Positions 2,507 to 54,200 of a DNA stretch of 64,000 bases are shown here, in pieces. The stretch spans positions 234,171 through 298,170 of the forward strand of contig JAKLGJ010000002.1 in assembly GCA_022710715.1 (NCBI GenBank). The letters run 5' to 3'. Under the pieces are notes generated by a model. The model ran no database searches and had not been told where the DNA came from. It saw only the letters and a list, made by a program, of their open reading frames with translations. Numbering within the stretch: the first letter of the stretch is position 1; every line of letters begins with the position of its first letter. A program made the position numbers and the translations under genes. The stretch comes from Candidatus Omnitrophota bacterium. Its GTDB lineage: Bacteria > Omnitrophota > Gorgyraeia > Gygaellales > Profunditerraquicolaceae.

Positions 2507-4135
2507 TCATTTCCGGTCTCCTGTATCTATAGTAACTAACCGGGCGATAGACTGCATCCCGGGGAGGGGGGAAGAGGATGCAGTCATTACGCCGGTTAAA
2601 TTATGGGGATTAAAAGATGAATCCGATGCTGGCAACCGGACGACAGACGCCACCCTGGGGAGGGGGGTAAAGGATGTAGTCATATCGCCGGTTAAATCCA
2701 GCATCAAATCAATAGAGAGCTGCATCCCGGGGAGGGGGGAAGAGGAAGCAGCTCTCTGCAACGTTAAGTTATCCTTAACGCCGGAAAATGAAAAATCGGA
2801 ATCAGTGATATGGTTAACAAGAGAATTATCGAAAGCAGGATGATGGGTTGGAGAATAAGAGAAAATGTTTGCGTCGGCCTTATGCTGCGCGGATTGGATG
2901 CGGGAAATAGAGGCAAGGCGATTTCCCGGAGGCGAGAGGCCGGTTTTTACATAATTAACCGCGGATACATCAACAATATCCGCTATATTCATCAGAATAT
3001 TATTTTTTTCATCCTTAAGGTTGCTATTGTGAGCCAGGCAGCACTGTTTTTCTCTCGCCGGGTTTTCTTGATTCAGGGTTTTATGCGCATCAACAGGTAT
3101 TTCAACTGGTTCTCTGGTCGAAGAGGCATTTTCCTGCGCAGGGAGCCTTAAATCTGCATCTGTTGTGGCGATGATTAGAGGTGATTGCTCCATGAGCATG
3201 GATTTTAAGATAGGAATAAGGCCAAACATCGCGAATTGAATCTTCTTTTCTTGATCTCCATCAGTTTCGCGGATATCTTTGACCTCGGATTTATTGGTAT
3301 AGACCGTATCAACCGTATCATTAGATATCGAAGTTTGATCCTTGCCCGATAGACTCTCTTTTGATGAAATAGTAACCTTGTTTTTAATTTGCGCTTTTAA
3401 ATGCGTTATTTCTGACTTAACAGATTTATGTAACATGTTTTTATCAGATTGTTCCGCCTTATATCCGTTTTTAAGGAGTGAATTCTGTAATTCAACCTGC
3501 GCGTTCCGAGATGCAATTTCTTCTTTATCGATTTGTGCGAAAGAAACGCCGGTTTTTTCTAAGTGCGTATTAGAAGTGTCGATTTTAGCTTTTTGCGCGT
3601 CCACTTTTAAAGCCACGGTGCTTTTTATAGCCGAATAAGTGGAATTGCTGTTTCGAGTTTCATTTTTCAGGTTTTTTTTGTTTTCCGAGTGCAGAGCGTA
3701 AAACCGTTCTTCCGAACCGCGGGTTTTGCTGAAGTAGTGATTGTTGAACAGGCTGGAAACAGACCGGTCATTCTGACTCGAATTCTTGCCATGGACATGA
3801 CGTTTGCGGCTTGAATCGTTGGAAGTGTGCGCGGACAGGTTTAACCAATTACTTTTGTGACTTGAGTAATTATTGCTGTATGTCGAGAAAAGTTTGAATA
3901 GCGGCGATCGCGAGCCTGCGGAGCTGGAATCTACGTTAGTATTGGTATCGGTCGATCTGTTGCGATAATTCTGCTGGCGGTTTGAGCTGTAGGCTTCTAT
4001 CTGCTTGGAATGTTTGAAAGTGCGTGCGCCGCTGGAAAAAGCGTAGCTGGGAGGCGCCGCCAAAACGGAGAAAAGCGCCAGGATAACAAAGGCGGTCGGG
4101 GTTCTCCAGATTGTCCGGTTCTCTTGCTTCTCCAT
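2507..4135 (-). CDS. hypothetical secreted protein, paralog A (N-terminus MEKQENRTIWR + signal anchor; Ser/Asn/Lys-rich; conserved C-terminal blocks DTVDTV, P(I/L)LKSM..EQ.PL..AT.D..LRLP, VNY.KTGLSPPGN).
   Basis: ATG at 4135 with GGGAG SD. Paralogous to 4754..6154 at both protein and leader level. Confidence 0.65.
   Translation of the reverse strand: MEKQENRTIWRTPTAFVILALFSVLAAPPSYAFSSGARTFKHSKQIEAYSSNRQQNYRNRSTDTNTNVDSSSAGSRSPLFKLFSTYSNNYSSHKSNWLNLSAHTSNDSSRKRHVHGKNSSQNDRSVSSLFNNHYFSKTRGSEERFYALHSENKKNLKNETRNSNSTYSAIKSTVALKVDAQKAKIDTSNTHLEKTGVSFAQIDKEEIASRNAQVELQNSLLKNGYKAEQSDKNMLHKSVKSEITHLKAQIKNKVTISSKESLSGKDQTSISNDTVDTVYTNKSEVKDIRETDGDQEKKIQFAMFGLIPILKSMLMEQSPLIIATTDADLRLPAQENASSTREPVEIPVDAHKTLNQENPAREKQCCLAHNSNLKDEKNNILMNIADIVDVSAVNYVKTGLSPPGNRLASISRIQSAQHKADANIFSYSPTHHPAFDNSLVNHITDSDFSFSGVKDNLTLQRAASSSPLPGMQLSIDLMLDLTGDMTTSFTPLPRVASVVRLPASDSSFNPHNLTGVMTASSSPLPGMQSIARLVTIDTGDRK
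2520..2790. repeat. 3 copies of a palindromic, G-rich element (..ACCGGGCGATAGACTGCATCC CGGGGAGGGGGGAAGAG GATGCAG..CGCCGGTTAAAT..) inside the 3' coding end of gene 2507..4135. Encodes the SSSPLPGMQ peptide repeat. The G-tracts have G-quadruplex potential on the + strand.
   Basis: Direct reading: GGGGAGGGGGG present three times, flanked by inverted arms CTGCATCC/GGATGCAG or AGAGCTGC/GCAGCTCT. Confidence 0.6.
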
Positions 4136-4140
4136 AGGGC

Positions 4141-4392
4141 TCCCGCAAAATAAAAATCCGGATTGCTTTTCCTGATTTCGGCAACCCGGTTAGTCAAAAA
4201 GGGAAACAATTCCATGGAGAAACAAATAATGTTTTCCCTGACCCCGTGGCTTTCCCCCCTCGAGAGGGGCTTTTCGATCAAGAATTTTACTGCGTGTTAC
4301 AAGCAAAGTATACCTTATGCGCTGCGGTTTTTCAATGCGCAAGAACAAACTTTTGTATCTGTTAACGCAGGCGTAAAGCCGGCTGTGCCGGA
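4141..4392 (-). promoter_or_regulatory. conserved ~250-nt leader, copy 1. In the mRNA sense it contains the GC palindrome hairpin CCCCTC-TCGA-GAGGGG, then GGAAAGCCACGGGG, then ...TTGACTAACCGGGTTGCCGAAATCAGGAAAAGCAATCCGGATTTTT, then the SD.
   Basis: ~80-85% identical by eye to 6161-6400. Confidence 0.45.
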
Positions 4393-4692
4393 CTATGCTT
4401 CAATCCGGCCGAGCAGGCTTTGGTAATCCTGGCGCGTTCTGATTATTACCAGATCATTGTTTAAAGCCTCTTGAATCGCATTAAGCACTATGGCAATCAA
4501 ATTGTCATTATCCATCTTTTCCCAGCGTCTGGCCAGGCCGTTGCGCCTGAATATAGAGTTGCTGCCGGCTGAAATGAAGAAAAGATGGATTCTTCCTGAT
4601 AATTCCTCTCTGGCTAGAAATAATATCGCCTGATTCCCCATGCACAGGACACCGTGAATAAACTTGAGCCGCAGAGAATCCGCCTGGTTCAC
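4393..4692 (-). CDS. hypothetical 99-aa protein (MNQADSLRLKFIHGVL...), GTG start.
   Basis: AGGAGG SD 6 nt upstream of GTG 4692. Sits between the two paralog genes. No family recognised. Confidence 0.45.
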   Translation of the reverse strand: MNQADSLRLKFIHGVLCMGNQAILFLAREELSGRIHLFFISAGSNSIFRRNGLARRWEKMDNDNLIAIVLNAIQEALNNDLVIIRTRQDYQSLLGRIEA

Positions 4693-4753
4693 TAAACACC
4701 TCCTGGTTGTGCTTTATCGCGCATAATCGTCGGTTCTCCTTTTAATCGCAAAT

Positions 4754-6154
4754 TTATAACCGGACGATAGGCTGGCCCTGGGGGGTGGGGTAGGGCACAG
4801 CCACATCGCCGGTTAAATTATTCGTTCCCATCGAAGGAAAAGATGCTGGCAACCGGGCGATAGACTGGGCCCTGGGGGGGTAGGGGAAGAGGGCGCCGTC
4901 ATATCGCCGGTTTAATCCAGCATCAAATGAATTATCAGATGTAATGATATGGTTTGTTGAATTGTTTGATGATGTGTCTGGTGCGAAATCAGTGGAATTA
5001 GAGAGATAAGAGGATGAATCCAGGCGGTTATCTTTATGCGAGGTTTGAACGCGGGAAACAGAAGAAAAGTTGTTTCCCGGAGGCGAAAGGCCTGTTTTCG
5101 CATAATTAACCGCAGTCAGAGCAATCAAATCAATGTTATTGAGAAGAGACTGTGAATTCTCAAAGTTATTATCAGGCGATCCGCCAATGTCGAAATGGTG
5201 AAATTGCTTATAGATATCTTCCGTGCGCGATTTATTTGCATCCAGCGGTAAGTCAAAAGGGTCGGCTTCGGGTAATGCTTCCTGGCTAATCGGCAAGCGC
5301 AGGCCTGTATCGGAAGTGGCGAGCATCAAAGGCAATTGCTCAATGATCATGTTTTTAAATATCGGCATAACTCCGTAAGGAGAATTCTGTATTTTCTTTT
5401 GATGTTTTGCGGTATCCTGCAGACTCTTCACCTCAAATTTCTGCGGAGATACCGTATCAACCGTATCGCGGGGCGAAAAAGCATGATTTTCTTTTCCGGT
5501 CAATGAATTCGAGCTATATGCCATCTTATTTTTGATTTCTAACGTCAAATGAACCGTAGATTGATTTTTATCTTTATTTACATCCATTTGCCGGGCTTCG
5601 ACTAAATTTTTCTTGTTTTTATGGTTCAATTCCATTGAGGCAGGGTTGGGAGTATTGATTGATCTGGATTGTTCGGGCTTTATCCTTGTCGCCGCCTCCT
5701 GATGATGCGTCTTCTGATTATTTTGCGTTGGGTTTTTATCAATACATGCTTTAACGCTTAACGCGTGCGTATTTGCGGGATTGGAAGCTTTGGCTCCGTC
5801 GGCCCGATTGGTTGTTGGTTGAACAGTGGAGGGAGTAACTAACCGATTAGCCAGGTTTTTAGTGAATTCTGCGGTACTGGCGGATGTTTTTCTCACGCTG
5901 ACATTGATTTTGGGAGAAGGGGATATCTGACGCAAGGTGAAAGCAGAGTTAAAGCCGTCGCCGCCGCGATCGTAACTCGAGGGAGACACGTCGAATTCTG
6001 CATAGCAAGGGGTTATAATGAGCGAGGAGAAACCTCCGATTATACGCCTGATTGCAATGTCATCAGCCAGTCCGCATTGACTGCTTAAAAATAAAGCGAT
6101 AATCGTAAGATTGACTATCCTGCGCCAGATTGTCCGGTTCGCTTGTTTCTCCAT
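4754..6154 (-). CDS. hypothetical secreted protein, paralog B (MEKQANRTIWR...).
   Basis: ATG at 6154. Shares N-terminus, C-terminal blocks and 3' G-rich repeats with 2507..4135. Confidence 0.65.
   Translation of the reverse strand: MEKQANRTIWRRIVNLTIIALFLSSQCGLADDIAIRRIIGGFSSLIITPCYAEFDVSPSSYDRGGDGFNSAFTLRQISPSPKINVSVRKTSASTAEFTKNLANRLVTPSTVQPTTNRADGAKASNPANTHALSVKACIDKNPTQNNQKTHHQEAATRIKPEQSRSINTPNPASMELNHKNKKNLVEARQMDVNKDKNQSTVHLTLEIKNKMAYSSNSLTGKENHAFSPRDTVDTVSPQKFEVKSLQDTAKHQKKIQNSPYGVMPIFKNMIIEQLPLMLATSDTGLRLPISQEALPEADPFDLPLDANKSRTEDIYKQFHHFDIGGSPDNNFENSQSLLNNIDLIALTAVNYAKTGLSPPGNNFSSVSRVQTSHKDNRLDSSSYLSNSTDFAPDTSSNNSTNHIITSDNSFDAGLNRRYDGALFPYPPRAQSIARLPASFPSMGTNNLTGDVAVPYPTPQGQPIVRL
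4760..4925. repeat. 2 copies of the same G-rich palindromic element as 2520-2790 (..CCTGGGGGGTGGGGTAGGG.. / ..CCTGGGGGGGTAGGGGAAGAGGG..), flanked by AACCGG(A/G)CGATAG ... ATCGCCGGTT(T)AAAT inverted arms.
   Basis: Direct reading. Four G3+ tracts per copy. Confidence 0.55.
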
Positions 6155-6160
6155 TTGGCC

Positions 6161-6400
6161 CCTTAAAAAGAAAAATCCGGATTGCTTTTCCTGATTTCGG
6201 CAACCCGGTCAGTCAATGAAAAGGGAAAATCAAATTGAGAAACAAAAGCAATTCCCCCGACCCCGTGGCTTTCCCCGCCGGAGCGGGGCTTTTCGATCAA
6301 GAATTCTGCTGCATTGTTCAGTCAAAGTATAGCTTACCGCGGGCGTATTTTCAAGGCAGAAAGGCCGACTTTTGTATCTGTTAACAAGCGGGTTAAATCG
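6161..6400 (-). promoter_or_regulatory. conserved leader, copy 2 (hairpin CCCCGC-CGGA-GCGGGG, GGAAAGCCACGGGG, GCGGGTTAAAT x2).
   Basis: Near-identical blocks with 4141-4390. Confidence 0.45.
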
Positions 6401-6406
6401 GGCGGG

Positions 6407-8374
6407 TTAAATATTGATTCCGTATCCGGTGGCTTTTTTGAGTCCGGCTAAGGCCAGGAAGTAGTTGCCCAGGGCCTGGAAATATTTGGTCTGGGCGTCA
6501 GCCAGGCTGAAGAGCGAATCCATGGCTGAAGAAAGGGAAGCGTCGTTGACCATGGCTCTGATCTTGGTGATCTCGGCCTGGTTGCGGCGGAAAGCCATAT
6601 CCGCTGCGGCGGTATTGAGTTGCAATATGGCTTTCTGGTAATTCAAAAAAGAATCCTGGACTTCGAAGGTGATCGTTTTTTTGGTTTCATTGAGATCGCT
6701 GTAAGAACGATGCAGGTCGACGTCGGCTTTTTTCAAAGAGGATATCCCGGCGAAATTATCCAGGATACCCAGTTCTGCGCTGGCAGAGGTGGTCTCGGAG
6801 TTGTTGGTATGCCCGTAGCGGCGCTGCATTTTTTCGTGCAAAAAGGAGCTTTTTAAAGAGCTGGCGCCCAGCATTTTGCTGACTTTGATGCCCGCGGCCC
6901 AGTTCGCGGAATTCTGGAGATCTTCGGTTTTGTAATTGCCCCAGTAGTATTCATAAGAACCCACGGCGTCTATGGCGAAATTATCCTTGTCCAGCTCGAT
7001 CTTCTTGCCGTATTTATTGAACTTGACCATCATCTCGCCGATGTATATTTCCGGCCGGCTTTTCAGGGCTACATCAAAAAGCTCGTCGAGATTAAGATTC
7101 GGCTTGGTGACTTCCGGTTCCGCGAGTTGTATTTCCGGCAAATCCTTGGTGTTGAGCACCTGCTTGAAAGTAAGCTCCGCCAGATAAATATCTTCCTTCA
7201 GACTGGCCAACTGGAATTCGATCTGTTCGAAAGACGATTGCGCGCTTTTTAATTCCAGCGGGATGATCATCCCGATATCGGCTAATTTCTGGATCCGGGT
7301 GAGCAGTTCCTGGGCTTCGGTGCGCAGGGCTTCTTTATAGCGCCAATGGGTGCGCGAAGCGATGAGGTTGTAATAAGCGGTTTCGGTTTTATGGATGATC
7401 TCATACTGCAGGCGGTTGAGGTTCATCTTGGAAACTTCCAGGTTGGCTTTAGCGTGCTCGATGGAATCCAGCAATCTCCCGCCGTAATAGATCGGCTGGT
7501 TTACCTCGATTTTCGCATTCATTTCGCGATAAGGTCCGGAGTAATCACCGTCGGTATAGCTGCTGGAAACTTTAGCCGTGGGCAGAAGATTGCGCATGGC
7601 TTCTTTGACTTTGAACTCCGCCAGGTCCACTTCTTTCTGCGCGACCGCAGTAGGTTTATTATTCTTAAGGGACGTTTGAATGAAAGCGCTTAGTTCTTCC
7701 GGCCAGCGGACCGCAGAAGCTTTGGGTTCATAGCGGGTGGCGATCGGTATGCCTATGTCGACGGGTTGCTGCATGGGAGAGAATGCGGGTTGTTCCGGGC
7801 TTTCTTCTTCCGTCGCGGGCTGCTCTTCCTGTTGCGCGAGTAACTGCTGTAATTCTTCCGGCGAAACTTCGCGCTCGTATACGCCTTCCTGCTCCAGCGC
7901 CATTTCGGATTCGCCTTCCAGCGGCTGCGAGAAATCCGGTTCATAAAAATTCGGTTGCGAGGGCACCTCGATTATATCGCCCAGGTCATCCGTACTAATG
8001 TCGGAGATCGCGTATCTTAACGGTAAAACTATCTCCACTTCTTCGTAGCCGTCATAGTCTTCCGGCAACGGATACGGTCCTGCGTCGCGCACTGCCGTTA
8101 CCGCCTGCTCATCGAGAATGGGGTATCCGGATGATTCGGCGATCATGATAGCTTTGAGGTTCCCATCCGCGGCAATCGTGACTTTAAGAGTAACAATTCC
8201 TTCCCAGCCATTTTCAATAGCTTCATCCGGATAGATGAGCAGGGAATTGATCTTTTGTTGCACAAAATTGAGATATTCAGTATTCAGGGGGGCGAGCTGG
8301 GCAAAGAGGCTGCAAAGCGGCAACGCCAAAGATAAAAAGAATAATACCAATAAGATAATGATTTTTCTCGGCAT
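6407..8374 (-). CDS. TonB C-terminal domain fused to a TolC-like outer-membrane efflux protein (OEP).
   Basis: Preferred start is the ATG at 8374 (MPRKIIILLVLFF signal; GAGGA SD); the track ORF starts at 8422. N-terminal YPDEAIENGWEGIVTLKVTIAADGNLKAIMIAESSGYPILDEQAVTAVRDAG matches the TonB_C pattern. The rest shows TolC-family coiled-coil/beta-barrel repeat character. Confidence 0.65.
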   Translation of the reverse strand: MPRKIIILLVLFFLSLALPLCSLFAQLAPLNTEYLNFVQQKINSLLIYPDEAIENGWEGIVTLKVTIAADGNLKAIMIAESSGYPILDEQAVTAVRDAGPYPLPEDYDGYEEVEIVLPLRYAISDISTDDLGDIIEVPSQPNFYEPDFSQPLEGESEMALEQEGVYEREVSPEELQQLLAQQEEQPATEEESPEQPAFSPMQQPVDIGIPIATRYEPKASAVRWPEELSAFIQTSLKNNKPTAVAQKEVDLAEFKVKEAMRNLLPTAKVSSSYTDGDYSGPYREMNAKIEVNQPIYYGGRLLDSIEHAKANLEVSKMNLNRLQYEIIHKTETAYYNLIASRTHWRYKEALRTEAQELLTRIQKLADIGMIIPLELKSAQSSFEQIEFQLASLKEDIYLAELTFKQVLNTKDLPEIQLAEPEVTKPNLNLDELFDVALKSRPEIYIGEMMVKFNKYGKKIELDKDNFAIDAVGSYEYYWGNYKTEDLQNSANWAAGIKVSKMLGASSLKSSFLHEKMQRRYGHTNNSETTSASAELGILDNFAGISSLKKADVDLHRSYSDLNETKKTITFEVQDSFLNYQKAILQLNTAAADMAFRRNQAEITKIRAMVNDASLSSAMDSLFSLADAQTKYFQALGNYFLALAGLKKATGYGINI

Positions 8375-8410
8375 TATTTCCTCAAATTTAGATATATTTA
8401 GACAAGCTAG

Positions 8411-8439
8411 ATTATATAGCAATGCTTAAAATTTGTCAA
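8411..8439 (-). promoter_or_regulatory. consensus sigma70 promoter for the TonB_C-OEP gene (TTGACA - 17 nt - TATAAT on the minus strand).
   Basis: Plus-strand ATTATA 8411-8416 and TGTCAA 8434-8439. Confidence 0.6.
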
Positions 8440-8952: not shown

Positions 8953-9015
8953 TTTGGTGGAACTAAGTGCTTTTTTAAATAAATGTAAATTTATAAAAAA
9001 AGTACTTCTTATACG

Positions 9016-9092
9016 AAAAAGGCAAACCAAGAGAAATCTTGGGACGCAAAGCCACGGATCCTCGAGAGAGAAACTTTCAGGATAGCCGAGTT
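9016..9092 (+). ncRNA. candidate c-di-GMP-I (GEMM) riboswitch aptamer. GGCAAACC (9021-9028); P1 6-bp stem with GAAA tetraloop (9027-9042); GGGACGCAAAGCC (9041-9053); P2 (ACGGATCC ... GGATAGCCGAG, to ~9090).
   Basis: Same architecture and near-identical conserved blocks as the Vibrio Vc2 aptamer, as remembered: GGCAAA-CCAUUC-GAAA-GAGUGG-GACGCAAAGCC. Confidence 0.6.
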
Positions 9093-9120
9093 ACCGAAAT
9101 GAGTAGCTCGGCTTTCTTGT
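9084..9120 (+). terminator. intrinsic terminator / expression platform. AGCCGAG-16 nt-CTCGGCT hairpin followed by TTCTTGTTT. Its 5' arm is the 3' arm of riboswitch P2, so the two are mutually exclusive.
   Basis: Inverted repeat 9084-9090 / 9107-9113, then a U-rich tract. Confidence 0.55.
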
Positions 9121-9237: not shown

Positions 9238-12200
9238 TACAGATATACTGTTCCCTCGGTACCGTATCAAGGCAACAACCCGCTGCCTACCGCTCCCAAA
9301 TCGGGTCTAAAAGAGACGATATGGCAGATGTTCCAAAAGATATCTACTGCTCTGATTCCGCAAGCTTATGCCTTCGATTTCGGCAGTTCAGGTTCACCTA
9401 CCAGTCTTTCTTCGGGTTCTTCTTCCGGATCGTCTTCTTTAGGTTCATCTTCACTGGGTTCCTCCTCTTCCGGTTCGTCTTATTCGGGTTCTTCAGGTTC
9501 ATTTAGTTTCAGCAATCCGGTCAGCTTTTCATCCGTATCAAGCAAGGGAACCGTATCAACAACCTCCAGCTCGTTATTCTCGAGCTTAAGCCCATCGTCC
9601 TCTTTAAGTTCGACCAGCTCGAACGGGTTAAGTAGCATTAAATTCTCTACGCCAAGCACCACTTCTTCTTTAATTAACTCCGGCTTAAACTATACTCAAA
9701 CCAGCGCCTTTTCCAATAATTACTCCAGCAATGTGCCGAATTCGCAGTCTACGATCAGTCCAAGCTTTTCCTTAAATAATACATATTCTGCCCAAACCGG
9801 AACAAACGCTGGCGCAGTGCAGGCTCCCAGCTTGAATTTCTCTAACAGCAGCCCTAACGCGCAACCGACTGTAACGATGCCGCAGCCTACTGCTTCTGCT
9901 ACTATTCCGGCACCTGCGAATTCCGCGAACAATGTTCAGAGCGTAGAAAGAGGTCAGAATGCGGCTAATGTGACCGGCGCTTCCGTTACCGGAGCCCAGG
10001 CAGCCCAGCAGTATGCTTTAGCGGTGAAATCGCCTGCAGCCACAACCACCGATGCGATGAAGGCTTTGTCTGCTAACGCGCCGGTTAAAGAGAACGCAAT
10101 AGCCAATGTTGTGAATGACACGGTTAATTCTGCCATTACCGGAGTGAAAGAGTTAGTGGCTGAAGCTAAAGATAATGCCCAGGTTTCTATGGAGCAGGCA
10201 TATCAGACTGCAGAAAACGCCAAAAAAGCGTTATTCGATAAATTAAATGATCAGAGTGCAGCTTTTGAGCAGGCTTTTATAGAGCTTAAACAGAATGCCC
10301 AGGACACCACGCAAACGGCTAAAGAGATCGGTAGTCAGCTGATCGCCCAGGCGAATATGAAAGTTCAGGAAACCTTTGCCAGCTTGAGCGAGCAGGTCAA
10401 AAAAGATATGGAGCAGACTTACAGCGTGATGTACCAGGCTATCGCTACTGCGGTAGATGCTTTCAACAACAATATGAAGATGCCTCCGCTGAACCAGGCG
10501 ATTACGCCGATGGCGAATCGTCAGTCTGCAGTCAACGAAGACAGCCAGGCGCAGCTCGACAAGAGCAACCTCGTTTCTACCGTATATGATGCTCTGACCC
10601 AATATGCCCTGGATAATCTCAACGCGACTAAAGCCGAATATCAGGATTTCAGCAATATACTTATTGAGACGGTTTCGAAACAGTATCAGCCTACCGGTCC
10701 TCCGGCGGCGAACACCACTTCTTCCGCCTCTAAAACTCTCGTCGATAACTATATCACCGGCGCTGCCGGCTTGGCCGCTAAATCCACTGAACTGCTTTCC
10801 GCTCTCCAGGAAGCCAGCTCTTACGTCAAAGAATACATTTCCAATTATAAGCTGAATGATTCTCTCACTCTGCATTCAAATGATCCGCCCTGCGGCGCCG
10901 TAGCTCTCGCTCCTATCCTCGGCGTCAATGCCGGCACATTATCCACGGAGTTATCTTCCTCTAATAATAACCAGAATTCCATGTACGAGCTGCAGACCGT
11001 AGCTGCGAATCATGGAACTACCCTTAACGGCAGGAATATTTCCTATACCGATCTGACCCAGATCAGCGGCGAATCCACTATCGCTTATCTGGATATGGGC
11101 AACAATCAGGGCCACTATGTGACCGTGACCGGCGCTACCGCTGATACGGTTACTTATTGCGACGCCACCGGCTGCAATACGGTTTCCAGCGCGCAGTTCC
11201 AGTCCCAGTGGACCGGCGCGGTTCTGACCACCAATAATACGGTCGGCCAGCCTATGCCTGAAGCTACTTTAAGACAGACGTACGGCGGATATGACGTTTT
11301 GGGTACCATTTCTTCCGGCTTGAGCACAGCGGCTGGGATGGTTACGGGAGCAGCTGGAGCGCTCGTAGGCGGTGCAAGCAGCGCTATAAACACAGCTCTT
11401 TCCGGCGGCAGCTTGCCCCAGACCGTGAATAGCGGTATTTCCGGGGCCCAGAGCGGGTATAATACCGGCTATCAGCTGGGAAGCACGGCAGTTAAGAGCG
11501 CTGCCAGCACGCTTTCTTCCGGCGCCAGCTCGTTGTTGAGCCTGGGTTCATCTTCTTCGAGCAGCTCTTCCAGCAGCAGCCTGGCCGCCAGCGTCAATTC
11601 CAATAAGAGCACTTCCGGTTTGAGCCTTCTTTCCAACGGATCTGTACTCAATACCAATCTTTTCAGTTCCGGCAATAAGACTACCACCCAGACTACTTCT
11701 AAAACGGCATCCAGCCCGAGCGCGCTTACCAGCCTGACTACCTGGGTTAACAGCGGTATTCAGACCGTCAAGCAGGTGGGCGGCGATACCGCGAAAGAGA
11801 TCATGAGCCTGGGCGCGGCCGATACCGTTACCTATAATAAGGCGGCTTCTTCTCCGACATTCAGCCAGGTTGCTTTGGATACCGCCAAAGAAGTGGTTTC
11901 GTTTGGACAGGCCAATACCGTTACCTATAATAAGGTTCCTGCGTCCACTTCGCTGGTTGATTCTGCCAAGTCTGGATTGAATACAGTTACTGCTGCCGGC
12001 ACTGGTTTCCTGAAAGTCGGCGCAGGAGAAACTTTGAAAGTTACCGGTTCTGTGGTCGGCATTGCCGATCCGAACCTGGGCAAAACCATTCAGAAAGTCG
12101 GCGATGCGCTGATCGCAGATGGCGTTGCTTCCAGCCCGGCAGTAGAGGTTGTTGTGGAGCATCCGCTGACCCAGTTTATCGGCCAGAACGTGAATAAGCA

Positions 12201-51200: not shown

Positions 51201-54200
51201 CGATCAGGACAACGTGAAGCTGTCGGCGATGAGAGCGCAGGTGGCAGGCCGGGCAGTAGAAGAGCGCCGGAGCCTGGCGGACGTGTATTCTCCGGACGGC
51301 AGCTCCATAGTCGGACAGGTGACTAAGGAACAGGTGCATTTGCGGGGCGAACCGCATGCGACTTATGGCTTGCAGGTGATCACTCCTCTGGGCCGCGCGC
51401 TGTTCCAGATCAGGGATAGGGAAAAGAACAACTTTGCCGGCGCCGCCACTTTGACTTTGTGCGGGCATACGCAACCCGGCGAGAGCGCTCTGGCCGCTTT
51501 GGCCAGGGATCTCAAGAAGAACCTCGGGCTCGATCGTTTCGATCCGGTCCGCCTGACCAAGTTCGTCCTGGTCCCCGGCCAGGAATACGACCTCTACGGC
51601 TATCTGGAGATGTACACTTTCATCGCTCTGAACGCAGAGCAGGACAACGCGCTCATCGAGCTCGCCGCAGATACAATGGCTTCCGGTCGGCGCAACGGCA
51701 ACAAGCCGCTGGATCAGGTCATGGCGGTGTATCAGCCCGGCTGGCATACGCTGTCGGTTTATATCTTCCGGGAAAACAGCCGGGAAGCGCTTGAGCGCGC
51801 GGTGCGCCGGATCAGTGCGCTGACGGGTATCGGTCATACCGACCATGTGGTCAACCGGGAATGGAAAGCTATCTATCAGTATGCGATGAGCGGCGAGGAG
51901 TTATCCCGCGTATTGAATTCGGCGAACGGCGCGCAGTTTGCCCAGCGCGACCTGGAAGAAACGATCACTGATTTTAACGCCAACCCGGAGAATTATACCG
52001 ATACGTTTGTTCCCCTGTTTACCGATCCCCGGTTAGCTGGGCAGTTCAAAGAAGGTCTGGTTGTCCTTTCCGACGGCGGAGATACGGACGCTTTGCTGCC
52101 GGAAGACGAAATGTCCGAAGCGCGAGTTGAGCTGGGCAGGGACCGGTATGATCATGACCTGTATTATTTCGCCAAAAAGGGTATGTATGGACGGATCCCG
52201 CTTATCGATTTGTTGCTCGATGAGCGGATCAACGATCTGTCATTCACCTGGGACGGCGATCTGCGGCTGGGAGACCGGCAGTTCTTCTTCGCGAACGAAG
52301 CGACGCCTATCGAGAGCTTCGCCAGGGGATATCTGTCCCGGCACTCTGCCATCGTTTCCTTCAACAATCTCGGCTTCTTGAGGGAATACGCCGCCTGGAA
52401 AAGAGGCGTGCTCTACCGGAATCCGCAATCCGTCAGCCGGCAGTATTACGGCCTGGTGCACTGGAAAGAACGGTACCGCGAAAACATGTTCGAACCGTTG
52501 ACCGGGGAGCTGATTTCGTTCGAAGGCGACCGGGTGATCCGCGAAGAGGAAGATATCAGCGACGAAGTCGATTTCGCCATCTGTCCCTGTCCGATCGTGA
52601 TCAACGGCAAGCCCGTTCCGCTTACCGCGCTGGCCGACTGGTTTACCGATCTGCGTCACGCATTCATTCTTCCCAACGTGCAGGCGCCCGAGAGCGCGGC
52701 GCAGGCAGCCGGACAACAGAGCGCTTTCCGCCAGGAAATGCTGCTGGGCAGATGGGAATTGTCCAATGATCGCCGCATGCTGGAACAGGCGTTGCTGGGT
52801 ATGCCGGTGAGCTTCGACCTCTCCGCATATCTCGAAGTCAGCGGCGCAGCGTATATCCAGTCGCAACTCCGGAAGTTTGCGTACAAACCGGCTGCCGGCA
52901 TTCCGGCCCGTCGCGGTCAGTACCGCATCGACGGCAATGAAATCTCCATCAACTTCAGGGAGAGCAGATTCCCTCATCAGGTTATCGGCCTGCAGGACCG
53001 TCAGCCGGCGTTCTATTCCTTCCTGGGCGTAAGTTCCCTGTATAAGGGGCCGACGTTCAAAGAAATGCAGAAGATACTTATTGCTGATCGCGTGAGCGAC
53101 GCATTTATCCTGGTCAACGGCCGGGACGTTTTCATCAAGCAGGGCAGCGGTCCGGTGTTCGATGCCCGGTATTTAAGCGAAAGACTGCGCATCAAGCCTT
53201 CGTATGCGGACGATATCAAGAGCCACCGCGACGAAATCATGGCTGCCATCGTGCTGGTAGACGGAGGGACGTTCGCGCAGGCGATGATAAGGAAGGCCCA
53301 GTCGATCGGGTATATTATTCTGGAAAGACTCGAGGAAATGCTCTTCGGCGCGGTGGTGATGACCATGGGTAAGGTGTCGTATGTCATGCTCAAGGGCGGG
53401 GTATGGGGAGGGTTGGATCCGCTTACGCGCGAACAGATCAAGCAGCGGCTGACCGGCACCTATGCGGTTTTCGAAGGCGAAGTCAAGCATGAGACCATTA
53501 ACGACGTCATCGAACGCTGGGGCCATACTTCGTTTACCTATACGCTCACGGCAATGGAAGAATCTGGCGAATTCGATCAGGATGATGTTGAATGGGGCAG
53601 AATGCTCGTTGCCCAGCGTGACGGAGAGGGTTTTGCCGCCTGGTTCAAGGAGATGAGAGCCCGGTATCCGCATAATGCCATTCTGCGGGAGTTCGATCTC
53701 TGGCTGCAATACAGCCTGAAAGGATCGCAGAACCTTATGCTCATCCGTACGGCTTCCCGCCGGGACGTGTTGAAGGCCTTCGGGCTGGATGTCAAACAGG
53801 CACAGTCCCTGCTCAAAGGCAGGAATCCGTTTGAGGTTGATGAGCAGGATTTCGTCAAGGCGATTGTGGTCGGCGCAACCGATGTGAGCGCGGCGCATGA
53901 AGGCAGCTTGCGCAATGCGGTGTTGAAACGTTATCAGATCCCGGGGAGCCTGGCGGACTTTGCGGCTATCGCGATCGCCAACGGCGTTGCCCGGGATAAA
54001 GTAAGCAAGCTCTTTAACGCCGTGCATTGCGCGGCTGCCGGCGAAGAGCTGGTCATCGAATTCGGCCTGATGAAGGAAACCGAGGCCGGGTACTTTGCCG
54101 ATCAGTTAGTTCGGGCTGCCCGTCAGAACGAGGATTTAGACGGCGGCGATCGTTATCCGACCAGCCAGGGAAGAGACCGTCACATCCATCTGGAAGGTTC

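Follow-up and report, generated by a model that had tools for sequence, protein, structure and literature searches.

Repeated hairpins near the ends of bacterial genes belong to several described kinds. Repetitive extragenic palindromic (REP) sequences, bacterial interspersed mosaic elements (BIMEs) and palindromic repeats of the enterobacterial repetitive intergenic consensus (ERIC) type stabilise the upstream mRNA in operons; REP and ERIC sequences occur in hundreds of dispersed intergenic copies, and REP sequences come with their REP-associated tyrosine transposases (RAYTs). Rickettsia palindromic elements are dispersed over many unrelated protein and RNA genes, and the RNase III sites of phage T7 and of lambda sib are untranslated. 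The pyrBI attenuator is a terminator that is repressed by the translating ribosome. Repression of this kind also acts on terminators that lie late in a coding region or a few base pairs past its stop codon (PMC4824070), and the progress of the ribosome through proline codons affects intrinsic termination (PMC5021804). Here, we describe five imperfect, hairpin-forming palindromes of 60–80 bases in a 64,000-nucleotide stretch (‘the window’) of a Candidatus Omnitrophota metagenome-assembled genome (MAG; GCA_022710715.1, contig JAKLGJ010000002.1, positions 234,171–298,170). All five (plus strand 2520–4925) lie inside the last 60–90 codons of two minus-strand open reading frames (ORFs), P1 and P2. 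Omnitrophota is an uncultivated phylum with giant genes and a suspected predatory lifestyle. We find that the hairpin is a selected, conserved feature of this locus and that the G-run in its loop is not, and we tentatively favor a reading in which the elements are mRNA-strand stem-loops with a C-rich loop that act as translation-sensitive terminator or 3′-end signals.

Hairpin repeats, terminators that overlap ORF ends and in-frame palindromic repeats are all already known kinds of element, and those in the window share traits with each. Like REP/BIME and ERIC sequences, they are repeated imperfect palindromes at cistron boundaries that are arranged in tandem and conserved more in structure than in sequence; unlike them, they number five copies, all within two paralogous ORFs and none elsewhere in 71 kb of the locus or among what the public scans returned. 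As in the Rickettsia palindromic elements, a palindromic repeat is translated within an ORF, uses more than one reading frame and falls where the protein structure is tolerant, but here it is confined to the 3′ tail of one gene family. The analogous, unrelated hairpins that we observed at the same spot in homologous genes suggest a position-specific role. The elements also resemble RNase III hairpins (of the T7 R1.1 type and lambda sib), which are long interrupted stem-loops of ~60–90 nucleotides (nt) between cistrons of a polycistronic RNA; the window elements differ in being translated, and their cleavage would be a predicted activity. With the ribosome-repressed intrinsic terminators (the Escherichia coli tR2 position study, PMC4824070) they share a stable mRNA-strand hairpin at the end of a unit, an ORF that reads through it, a stop codon in or just past the hairpin, and runs of U past some copies (those of type A, defined below) and past several homolog hairpins. 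Compared with these terminators, however, the window elements have longer, bulged stems (22–30 base pairs, bp), larger loops (12–16 nt) with a conserved C-rich sequence, and a tandem arrangement in sets of two or three; copies of the second type, B, lack a U-tract, and termination here would be a predicted activity. What is unusual is the combination: a strongly conserved tandem module with long stems and C-rich loops, set in a translated tail and recurring analogously in a lineage-specific gene family that is riboswitch-led and lies beside giant genes.

The initial annotation had placed five palindromic copies in the 3′ coding ends of two paralogs, on the template strand of both genes, and both statements are borne out. 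The P1 and P2 proteins are paralogs (35% identity, E-value 1e-44), and their template strand is the plus strand. The same annotation gave every copy AACCGG ends, and here the picture is mixed: the four complete copies (1, 2, 4 and 5) carry the arms AACCGG(R)CGAYAG... and ...CAYWWCGCCGGTT(A/T)AAT around a G-rich center of 12–16 nt, but copy 3 lacks the AACCGG/CCGGTT ends. Its inner stem differs from that of copy 1 by one base, and its outer stem is swapped for AGAGAG/CUCUCU (AGAGAG/CTCTCT in the DNA), so that the hairpin is kept despite a different outer stem sequence. Copies 2 and 5, which we call type A, have an additional outer stem, GATGCTGG/CCAGCATC; copies 1 and 4 are of type B (Table 1). 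The left arm AACCGGRCGAYAGRC occurs four times against 0.84 expected, a count reached in none of 100 shuffles. Allowing up to three mismatches, the right arm CATATCGCCGGTTAAAT occurs five times against 0.11 expected, with four of the five occurrences within elements. We then made a covariance model of the copies; with filters off, its scan of 85.6 kb (the window plus L008) returned only the five copies and one weak, unrelated hairpin at 458–541. This extra match (21.4 bits) is a GC-rich hairpin at 487–522 on the minus strand, GGGCUGUGCCCC-GGUAAACCAA-GGGGCACAGCCC, which starts 8 nt past the stop of the gene at 531–2510 and has no adjoining U-tract, a run of seven U lying ~25 nt further on.

Table 1. 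Features of the window and of homologous loci (L090, L093 and L095, each in its own numbering).
Feature	Coordinates	Strand	Description
P1 (ORF, 542 amino acids)	2507–4135	minus	signal-peptide-like N terminus; motif NYVKTGLSPP; tail read through copies 3, 2 and 1
P2 (ORF, 466 amino acids)	4754–6154	minus	P1 paralog; tail read through copies 5 and 4
Copy 1, type B	2538–2601	minus	22-bp interrupted stem; mRNA-strand loop CCUCUUCCCCCCUCCCC; model score 92.4 bits
Copy 2, type A	2625–2705 (core 2634–2697)	minus	extra outer stem GAUGCUGG/CCAGCAUC; −44.5 kcal/mol, z −6.9; 90 bits
Copy 3, partial	2714–2757	minus	40.3 bits; loop as in copy 1
Copy 4, type B	4758–4818	minus	85 bits; P2 stop UAA (4754–4756) starts 1 nt past the stem
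Copy 5, type A	4842–4924 (core 4851–4916)	minus	extra outer stem; 84.6 bits; mRNA-strand UUUUCC directly past the stem
P1 leader	4147–4335	minus	promoter-like 4335–4307, TTGAAA-17-TATACT; c-di-GMP-I-GGC-like aptamer 4279–4176, 25.8 bits, below gathering score
P2 leader	6165–6354	minus	promoter-like 6354–6326; c-di-GMP-I-GGC-like 6298–6195, 20 bits, below gathering score; terminator-like hairpin as in P1
L090 hairpin	7264–7318	mRNA strand	lies 120 nt ahead of the stop codon; UUUUUU follows
L090 hairpin	7401–7436	mRNA strand	loop ACCCCCCC, then stop UAA and AUUUUU
L090 hairpin	~10441–10492	mRNA strand	followed by AUUUUUAUUU
L095 hairpin	~1395–1420	mRNA strand	AAUCCGC-CUAA-GCGGAUU, then U7
L093 terminator-like hairpins	~2140–2200, ~2270–2305, ~3905–3950		in P1/P2 homologs

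No further copies came up when the model was run over the homolog loci. Pattern scans of 185,579 species genomes and of the JGI metagenomes, collections from which the source MAG is apparently absent, gave only apparent chance matches, none with the palindrome or the G-rich loop; a pattern scan of IMG/VR gave two viral matches, which were not inspected. At the gathering score no Rfam family matches the elements, and the best resemblance (at E ≤ 5) is to the small RNA ar7, a C-rich-loop hairpin (18.7 bits, E 1.3, not significant).

On the mRNA strand, all five copies fold stably (−22.6 to −44.5 kcal/mol), with z-scores of −4.7 to −7.8 against shuffled sequences. The plus strand folds are weaker (z −3.0 to −4.7); in copy 2, it reaches −35.8 kcal/mol, as opposed to −44.5 kcal/mol for the mRNA strand. 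The stems are interrupted by conserved bulges and close a loop that is C-rich on the mRNA strand, and copies 1 and 3 have the same loop sequence, CUCUUCCCCCC, as copy 2 of a related strain, L089. When we aligned the five window copies with the four orthologous copies of this strain, the stem positions paired in 85% of cells, compared with 27–45% when the partners were slid, and six pairs had changed on both sides. The wobbles in the stems comprise 13 G-U pairs on the mRNA strand and five A-C pairs, the latter being G-U on the other strand only. A G+C-rich hairpin on the transcribed strand, as found in intrinsic terminators, is present in the elements; runs of U follow the stem in two of them. 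Copy 5 has its tract directly past the outer stem, copy 2 has UUUU (2612–2615) 9 nt past its outer stem and 4 nt past the predicted extended stem, and copies 1, 3 and 4 have none. Our terminator scan scores loops of at most 8 nt only and so is silent on the elements.

Comparison with L089, on which the element comparison rests because the contig of another related strain (L098) ends before the P2 tail, shows that the repeats are kept and remain structured, as the initial annotation had required of homologs. The element cores show 13 differences over 255 positions (5%), and copy 4 shows none over 61. Over the same distance, the bodies of P1 and P2 differ by 25% (300/1211) and 11%, ORF99 by 35% and the spacer between copies 5 and 4 by 37% (9/24). 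The P1 tail is more conserved than the P1 body (Fisher p = 3e-9), and the UUUU past the type A copies is kept while the remainder of the spacer diverges. The substitutions in the elements are mostly non-synonymous or without third-position bias. Judged from these comparisons, the constraint on the elements is at the nucleotide level.

The strains also differ by one large indel. L089 P1 lacks 126 nt (42 codons, in frame; window 2712–2837, L089 ~2738) that span copy 3 and the motif NHITDSDFSF, so that P1 has three copies in the window and two in L089. Because P2 keeps the adjoining NHI.. motif that is lost from L089 P1, a deletion in the lineage of L089 is the simplest account of the difference. 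Its boundaries are not repeat units, and 50 nt of unique sequence are also gone. Among closer relatives, four assemblies from different samples show no difference from the window over 14 kb, and a fifth (L012, GCA_035915995.1; 2.9 kb) shows one single-nucleotide polymorphism (SNP), 4882 A>C, in the copy 5 loop. This SNP changes GGGGGGGTAGGGG to GGGGGGGTCGGGG and Tyr to Asp in P2.

The elements are translated in the tails of P1 and P2, which supports the earlier proposal that they encode the C-terminal peptides; the frame, however, is not common to all of them. The mRNA-sense reading of copy 2 is ...LTGDMTTSFTPLPRVASVVRL...; at the place of its ...LTGDM..., copy 5 begins with ...LNRRYDG.... Copy 5 is entered one frame off copy 2 (...LNRRYDGALFPYPPRAQSIARL...) and regains the common frame past its longer loop. 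This difference indicates that the repeat is a nucleotide-level feature rather than a peptide repeat. In line with this, the units do not behave as a protein tandem repeat, which would keep one frame and conserve amino acids at least as well as nucleotides, and across the family the tails show no conservation at the protein level. No element contains a stop in the gene frame; the other two frames have 2–13 stops across the same tails. Within each single element, two of the three sense frames are open. The reading frame therefore seems to be maintained through the hairpins, although given the two open frames this is not a very hard condition. P1 ends 28 nt past copy 1, and its stop overlaps the ATG of the next gene (ATGA, 2507–2510).

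To place the two proteins, we searched for relatives. A hypothetical protein of a Candidatus Omnitrophota MAG has exactly the sequence of P1; word-indexed searches returned nothing besides P1 and P2 but a strain variant and a distant homolog (P0009), and an exhaustive profile search found eight distant relatives. The resulting family (P0003–P0010 with P1 and P2) has an N terminus resembling a signal peptide and a long body of low complexity, with G.MP.LK and NY.KTGLSPP as its short conserved motifs. Its relatives appear to be Omnitrophota-type proteins, and the family appears to be restricted to this phylum. Neither Pfam nor NCBIfam has a match for P1 or P2. An AlphaFold2 model from the 10-sequence alignment is mostly disordered, with a predicted local distance difference test score (pLDDT) of 38 that is too poor for a fold search and of ~30–35 in the tail.

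Upon examination of the homologous genes, we noticed that hairpins recur at the same position. For seven of eight family genes, the 70-nt window with the greatest stability in the entire gene falls in the ORF tail, past the conserved motif; the genes come from five loci and are not mutually independent. These tail hairpins are unrelated in sequence to the window elements. Several of them look like canonical intrinsic terminators on the mRNA strand, with U5–U7, located before or at the stop codon (Table 1). They are either inside the ORF, at 35–120 nt from its stop codon, or arranged so that this codon separates stem from U-tract. L090 and L093 have two tail hairpins in common that differ by compensatory changes. 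The gene order of L090 is that of the window: a giant gene, a TonB_C-TolC fusion and two family members.

Taken as 3′-end signals, the elements would work as follows. We infer that the active form is RNA rather than DNA, that the activity is termination or 3′-end protection, and that translation modulates it. There would be a single RNA stem-loop module on the minus strand, of which the G-rich plus strand is merely the complement. The module may have arisen where an ancestral gene ended, at its 3′ side, as a pair of type A and type B; the pair would then have been duplicated with the gene to yield P2 and P1, and P1 would have gained copy 3. A promoter-like site and a riboswitch-like leader precede each of the two paralogs, and a signal at the 3′ boundary is therefore to be expected. 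The hairpins would mark the 3′ ends of these two separately promoted, riboswitch-led transcription units and act there as terminators or as structures that form or stabilise the 3′ end. Because the reading frame stays open through them, they could be sensitive to translation: a ribosome translating the tail would melt the hairpins, and whether transcription stops or continues into the genes downstream would then hinge on the paralog being translated. The U-tract hairpins at the same position in the homologs, and the conservation of the elements above that of their flanks, favor this reading. If it is true, the elements are natural, evolutionarily maintained examples of terminators inside an ORF, which have so far been studied mainly through engineered constructs and leader peptides.

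Several observations weigh against the 3′-end-signal reading. The type B copies, 1 and 4, are not followed by a U-tract, and the tracts of type A comprise only four U. The loops and stems are atypically large, and the simple terminators of the locus (4189–4147 and 9084–9113) look different. The loop sequence is conserved, which a plain terminator does not need and which hints at a specific partner. The tandem of two or three copies is left unexplained. The P2 tail is no more conserved than the P2 body (p = 0.58). All copies derive from one ancestor, so the conserved bulges and loops could in part reflect ancestry or gene conversion, and the wobble bias toward the C-rich mRNA strand, itself mild, comes from copies that are not independent. 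The missing type B U-tracts, the large stems and loops and the conserved loop suggest that the elements are more than plain terminators, perhaps involving RNase III processing or a partner specific to the loop.

A role as platforms for RNA processing or binding, in which RNase III cuts the stems or the C-rich loops dock a protein or a G-rich RNA (Shine-Dalgarno regions or the gene’s own riboswitch leader), is on the whole unlikely. It would account for the 22–30 bp stems with their conserved bulges and for the large loops with a sequence common to copies 1 and 3 and L089 copy 2, and the nearest Rfam resemblance, ar7, is itself a C-rich-loop hairpin, albeit not a significant one. Two 10-mers of the P1 leader are, moreover, complementary to copy 1 RNA. 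They lie at 4261–4252 and 4194–4185 on the minus strand (GAGGGGGGAA and ACUAACCGGG) and are perfect complements of 2573–2564 (loop) and 2544–2535 (3′ arm and flank), respectively, also on the minus strand. In L089, the 3′-arm match is kept and has grown to 11 nt, but the loop match is lost with a change in the leader hairpin. The P2 leader shows nothing comparable, and matches of this kind occur in ~4–6% of control windows, so that we take the possible pairing between P1 leader and copy 1 as a lead only. The loops are small or different in the homologs of other genera, and no candidate binding protein emerged, ORF99 and its neighbors being without informative family matches. We regard as improbable that the elements are a selfish or neutral palindromic repeat (of the REP, miniature inverted-repeat transposable element (MITE) or Rickettsia palindromic element type) that spread locally, is tolerated in a disordered tail and has no function. 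Multiple copies with inverted-repeat ends would fit such an origin, as would copy 3, which looks like an extra insertion relative to P2 with ATTT on both sides; two open sense frames out of three and a tail predicted to be disordered make in-frame tolerance easy, and the elements of the paralogs are 81% similar at 35% protein identity, a difference to which gene conversion may have contributed. Yet the 85.6-kb model scan found no further copies, the pattern matches in public genomes and metagenomes look like chance, and copies 5/2 and 4/1 share their flanks, which indicates duplication with the gene rather than independent insertion. The possible ATTT duplication is limited to copy 3, with no transposase or RAYT gene nearby, and the compensatory stem changes together with the retained copy 3 hairpin indicate selection on structure. 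The unrelated hairpins at the same position in the homologs also speak against a selfish repeat. The elements recall integron attC sites in being imperfect palindromes of 60–70 nt with a variable center, conserved unpaired stem bases and ATTTAAC/GTT ends that resemble R″/R′. On the minus strand, ATTTAAC fits RYYYAAC in copies 1, 2 and 4, but the R′ side (GTTAGTT, GTTGCCA and GTTATAA) has one to three misfits to GTTRRRY. They differ from attC sites in lying within the ORFs of a duplicated gene, 72–98 nt apart, and we discarded this class for want of an integrase and a cassette array; the called genes of the locus include no tyrosine recombinase, and its right side is one giant ORF. Retrons, diversity-generating retroelements, CRISPR arrays, frameshift signals and CsrA sites were likewise rejected: their defining partners (reverse transcriptase, template repeat, regular spacing or slippery heptamer) are missing, or the motif is not in all copies.

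The initial annotation had read the G-rich loops as G-quadruplex (G4) DNA on the template strand that would pause polymerases or drive recombination and copy-number change of the C-terminal repeats; as the functional feature of the elements, we consider this very unlikely. G4Hunter (25-nt window, threshold 1.5) does score all five loops above threshold (1.80, 1.84, 1.80, 1.80 and 2.04), so that the low scores named beforehand as evidence against G4s are absent, and the loops are among the nine highest-scoring regions of the 64 kb. When we looked on both strands for the G4 motif (G3+N1–7)×4, four tracts of at least three Gs with loops of 1–7 nt, only copy 5 contained this canonical motif (4874–4893, plus strand). 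ViennaRNA with G4s allowed, which uses RNA parameters and not DNA energetics, placed a G4 in the minimum-energy fold of copy 5 only, a three-layer structure inside the loop, and folded the other four copies as plain hairpins. The L089 ortholog of copy 5 has GAGG for GGGG and GAG for GGG; its score falls to 1.44 and the canonical match is gone, but the hairpin is kept. The G tracts lie within a loop that is enclosed by 22–30 bp of stem, which would compete with G4 folding; conservation and co-variation are found in the stem, the wobbles favor the opposite strand, and the homolog loops contain C7, G6 or neither G nor C runs. As to copy-number change, P1 does have three copies in one strain and two in the other, and the sole SNP among the five near-identical assemblies falls in the copy 5 loop. 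The indel between the strains, however, lacks repeat-unit boundaries and removes unique sequence as well, which gives no evidence of slippage driven by G4s or repeats, and apart from that SNP the five assemblies are identical over their common region, so that no instability is visible. A high G4Hunter score in a conserved hairpin loop thus does not in itself speak for a quadruplex as the functional unit. The window has just one other canonical four-tract motif, at 53394–53412 on the plus strand (GGGCGGGGTATGGGGAGGG, G4Hunter 2.12), within the giant gene and on its coding strand. It is just as hard to credit that what matters is the peptide, a repeat at the C terminus (LTGD...P.P...I.RL) that might serve in secretion or anchoring, with the palindrome incidental to it. 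The ORF is open through all elements and across the 42-codon indel, and three of four half-elements keep the same frame in P1 and P2 (...S(I/V)(A/V)RLPAS and NLTG(D)(V/M)); the first half of copy 5, however, is read in another frame than that of copy 2, a protein-level reason for a 22-bp inverted repeat with compensatory changes is lacking, and the disorder, the absence of protein conservation in the tails and the substitution pattern described above point the same way. Equally remote, if not more so, is phase variation, in which the C6–C7 loop tracts would be contingency tracts whose slippage shifts the tail frame, the C terminus and downstream coupling. Such runs (one of them G6) recur in several family gene tails, each element has two open frames out of three, and, with copy 2 as the reference, the frame of copy 5 is not the same before and after its loop. 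The tract lengths are, however, identical in the window, the five other assemblies and L089, runs of six or seven are short for efficient slippage, and the conserved long stems would go unexplained.

The 3′-end-signal reading gains its context from the 5′ ends of the same genes. The P1 leader has, besides its promoter-like site and aptamer (Table 1), a terminator-like hairpin with a U run at 4189–4147, just before the start codon. A leader resembling the cyclic di-GMP (c-di-GMP) riboswitch family c-di-GMP-I-GGC precedes all family genes whose upstream DNA could be examined. We observed the same three-part leader, with a promoter-like TTGAAA-17-TATACT, the aptamer and a terminator-like hairpin with a U run ahead of the start codon, in L089 (1381–1487), L090 (5802–5956 and 8850–8943) and L093 (739–851 and 2471–2589). 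The aptamers of the family score 20–54 bits (gathering score 59) and carry a long insertion in one stem; they may represent a divergent subclass of riboswitch, in control of a small regulon next to the giant gene. Together, hairpins and riboswitch-like leaders would outline such a small RNA-controlled regulon and offer a handle on the regulation of the locus. A more speculative extension, to which we attach a rather low probability, is a gene family in the giant-gene loci of Omnitrophota that is under a two-ended RNA control: a c-di-GMP-I-GGC-type riboswitch with its terminator at the 5′ end, and one to three terminator-like hairpins in a translated, disordered, proline-rich tail at the 3′ end. 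Downstream transcription or mRNA survival would then need a ribosome on the tail, the C-rich loop with its proline codons would be a pause or recognition site, and the five elements of the window would be the most elaborate version of the arrangement.

The giant gene itself is preceded by a c-di-GMP-I-GGC riboswitch that scores above gathering (9012–9099, plus strand, 71.6 bits) and lies directly upstream of the ORF. This ORF (9103–64000, plus strand) is open to the window end over 18,299 codons, and on a 914-kb ENA contig the gene is called with 54,154 amino acids. Likewise, in L090 a c-di-GMP-I-GGC riboswitch (64.3 bits) stands ahead of a gene of 46,982 amino acids. Riboswitches are not mentioned in the giant-gene preprint. 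On the other side of P2, the ORF at 6407–8422 (minus strand) joins a TonB C-terminal domain (residues ~50–140) to a TolC/OEP outer-membrane channel, a fusion that is kept beside the giant gene in L090 and L098.

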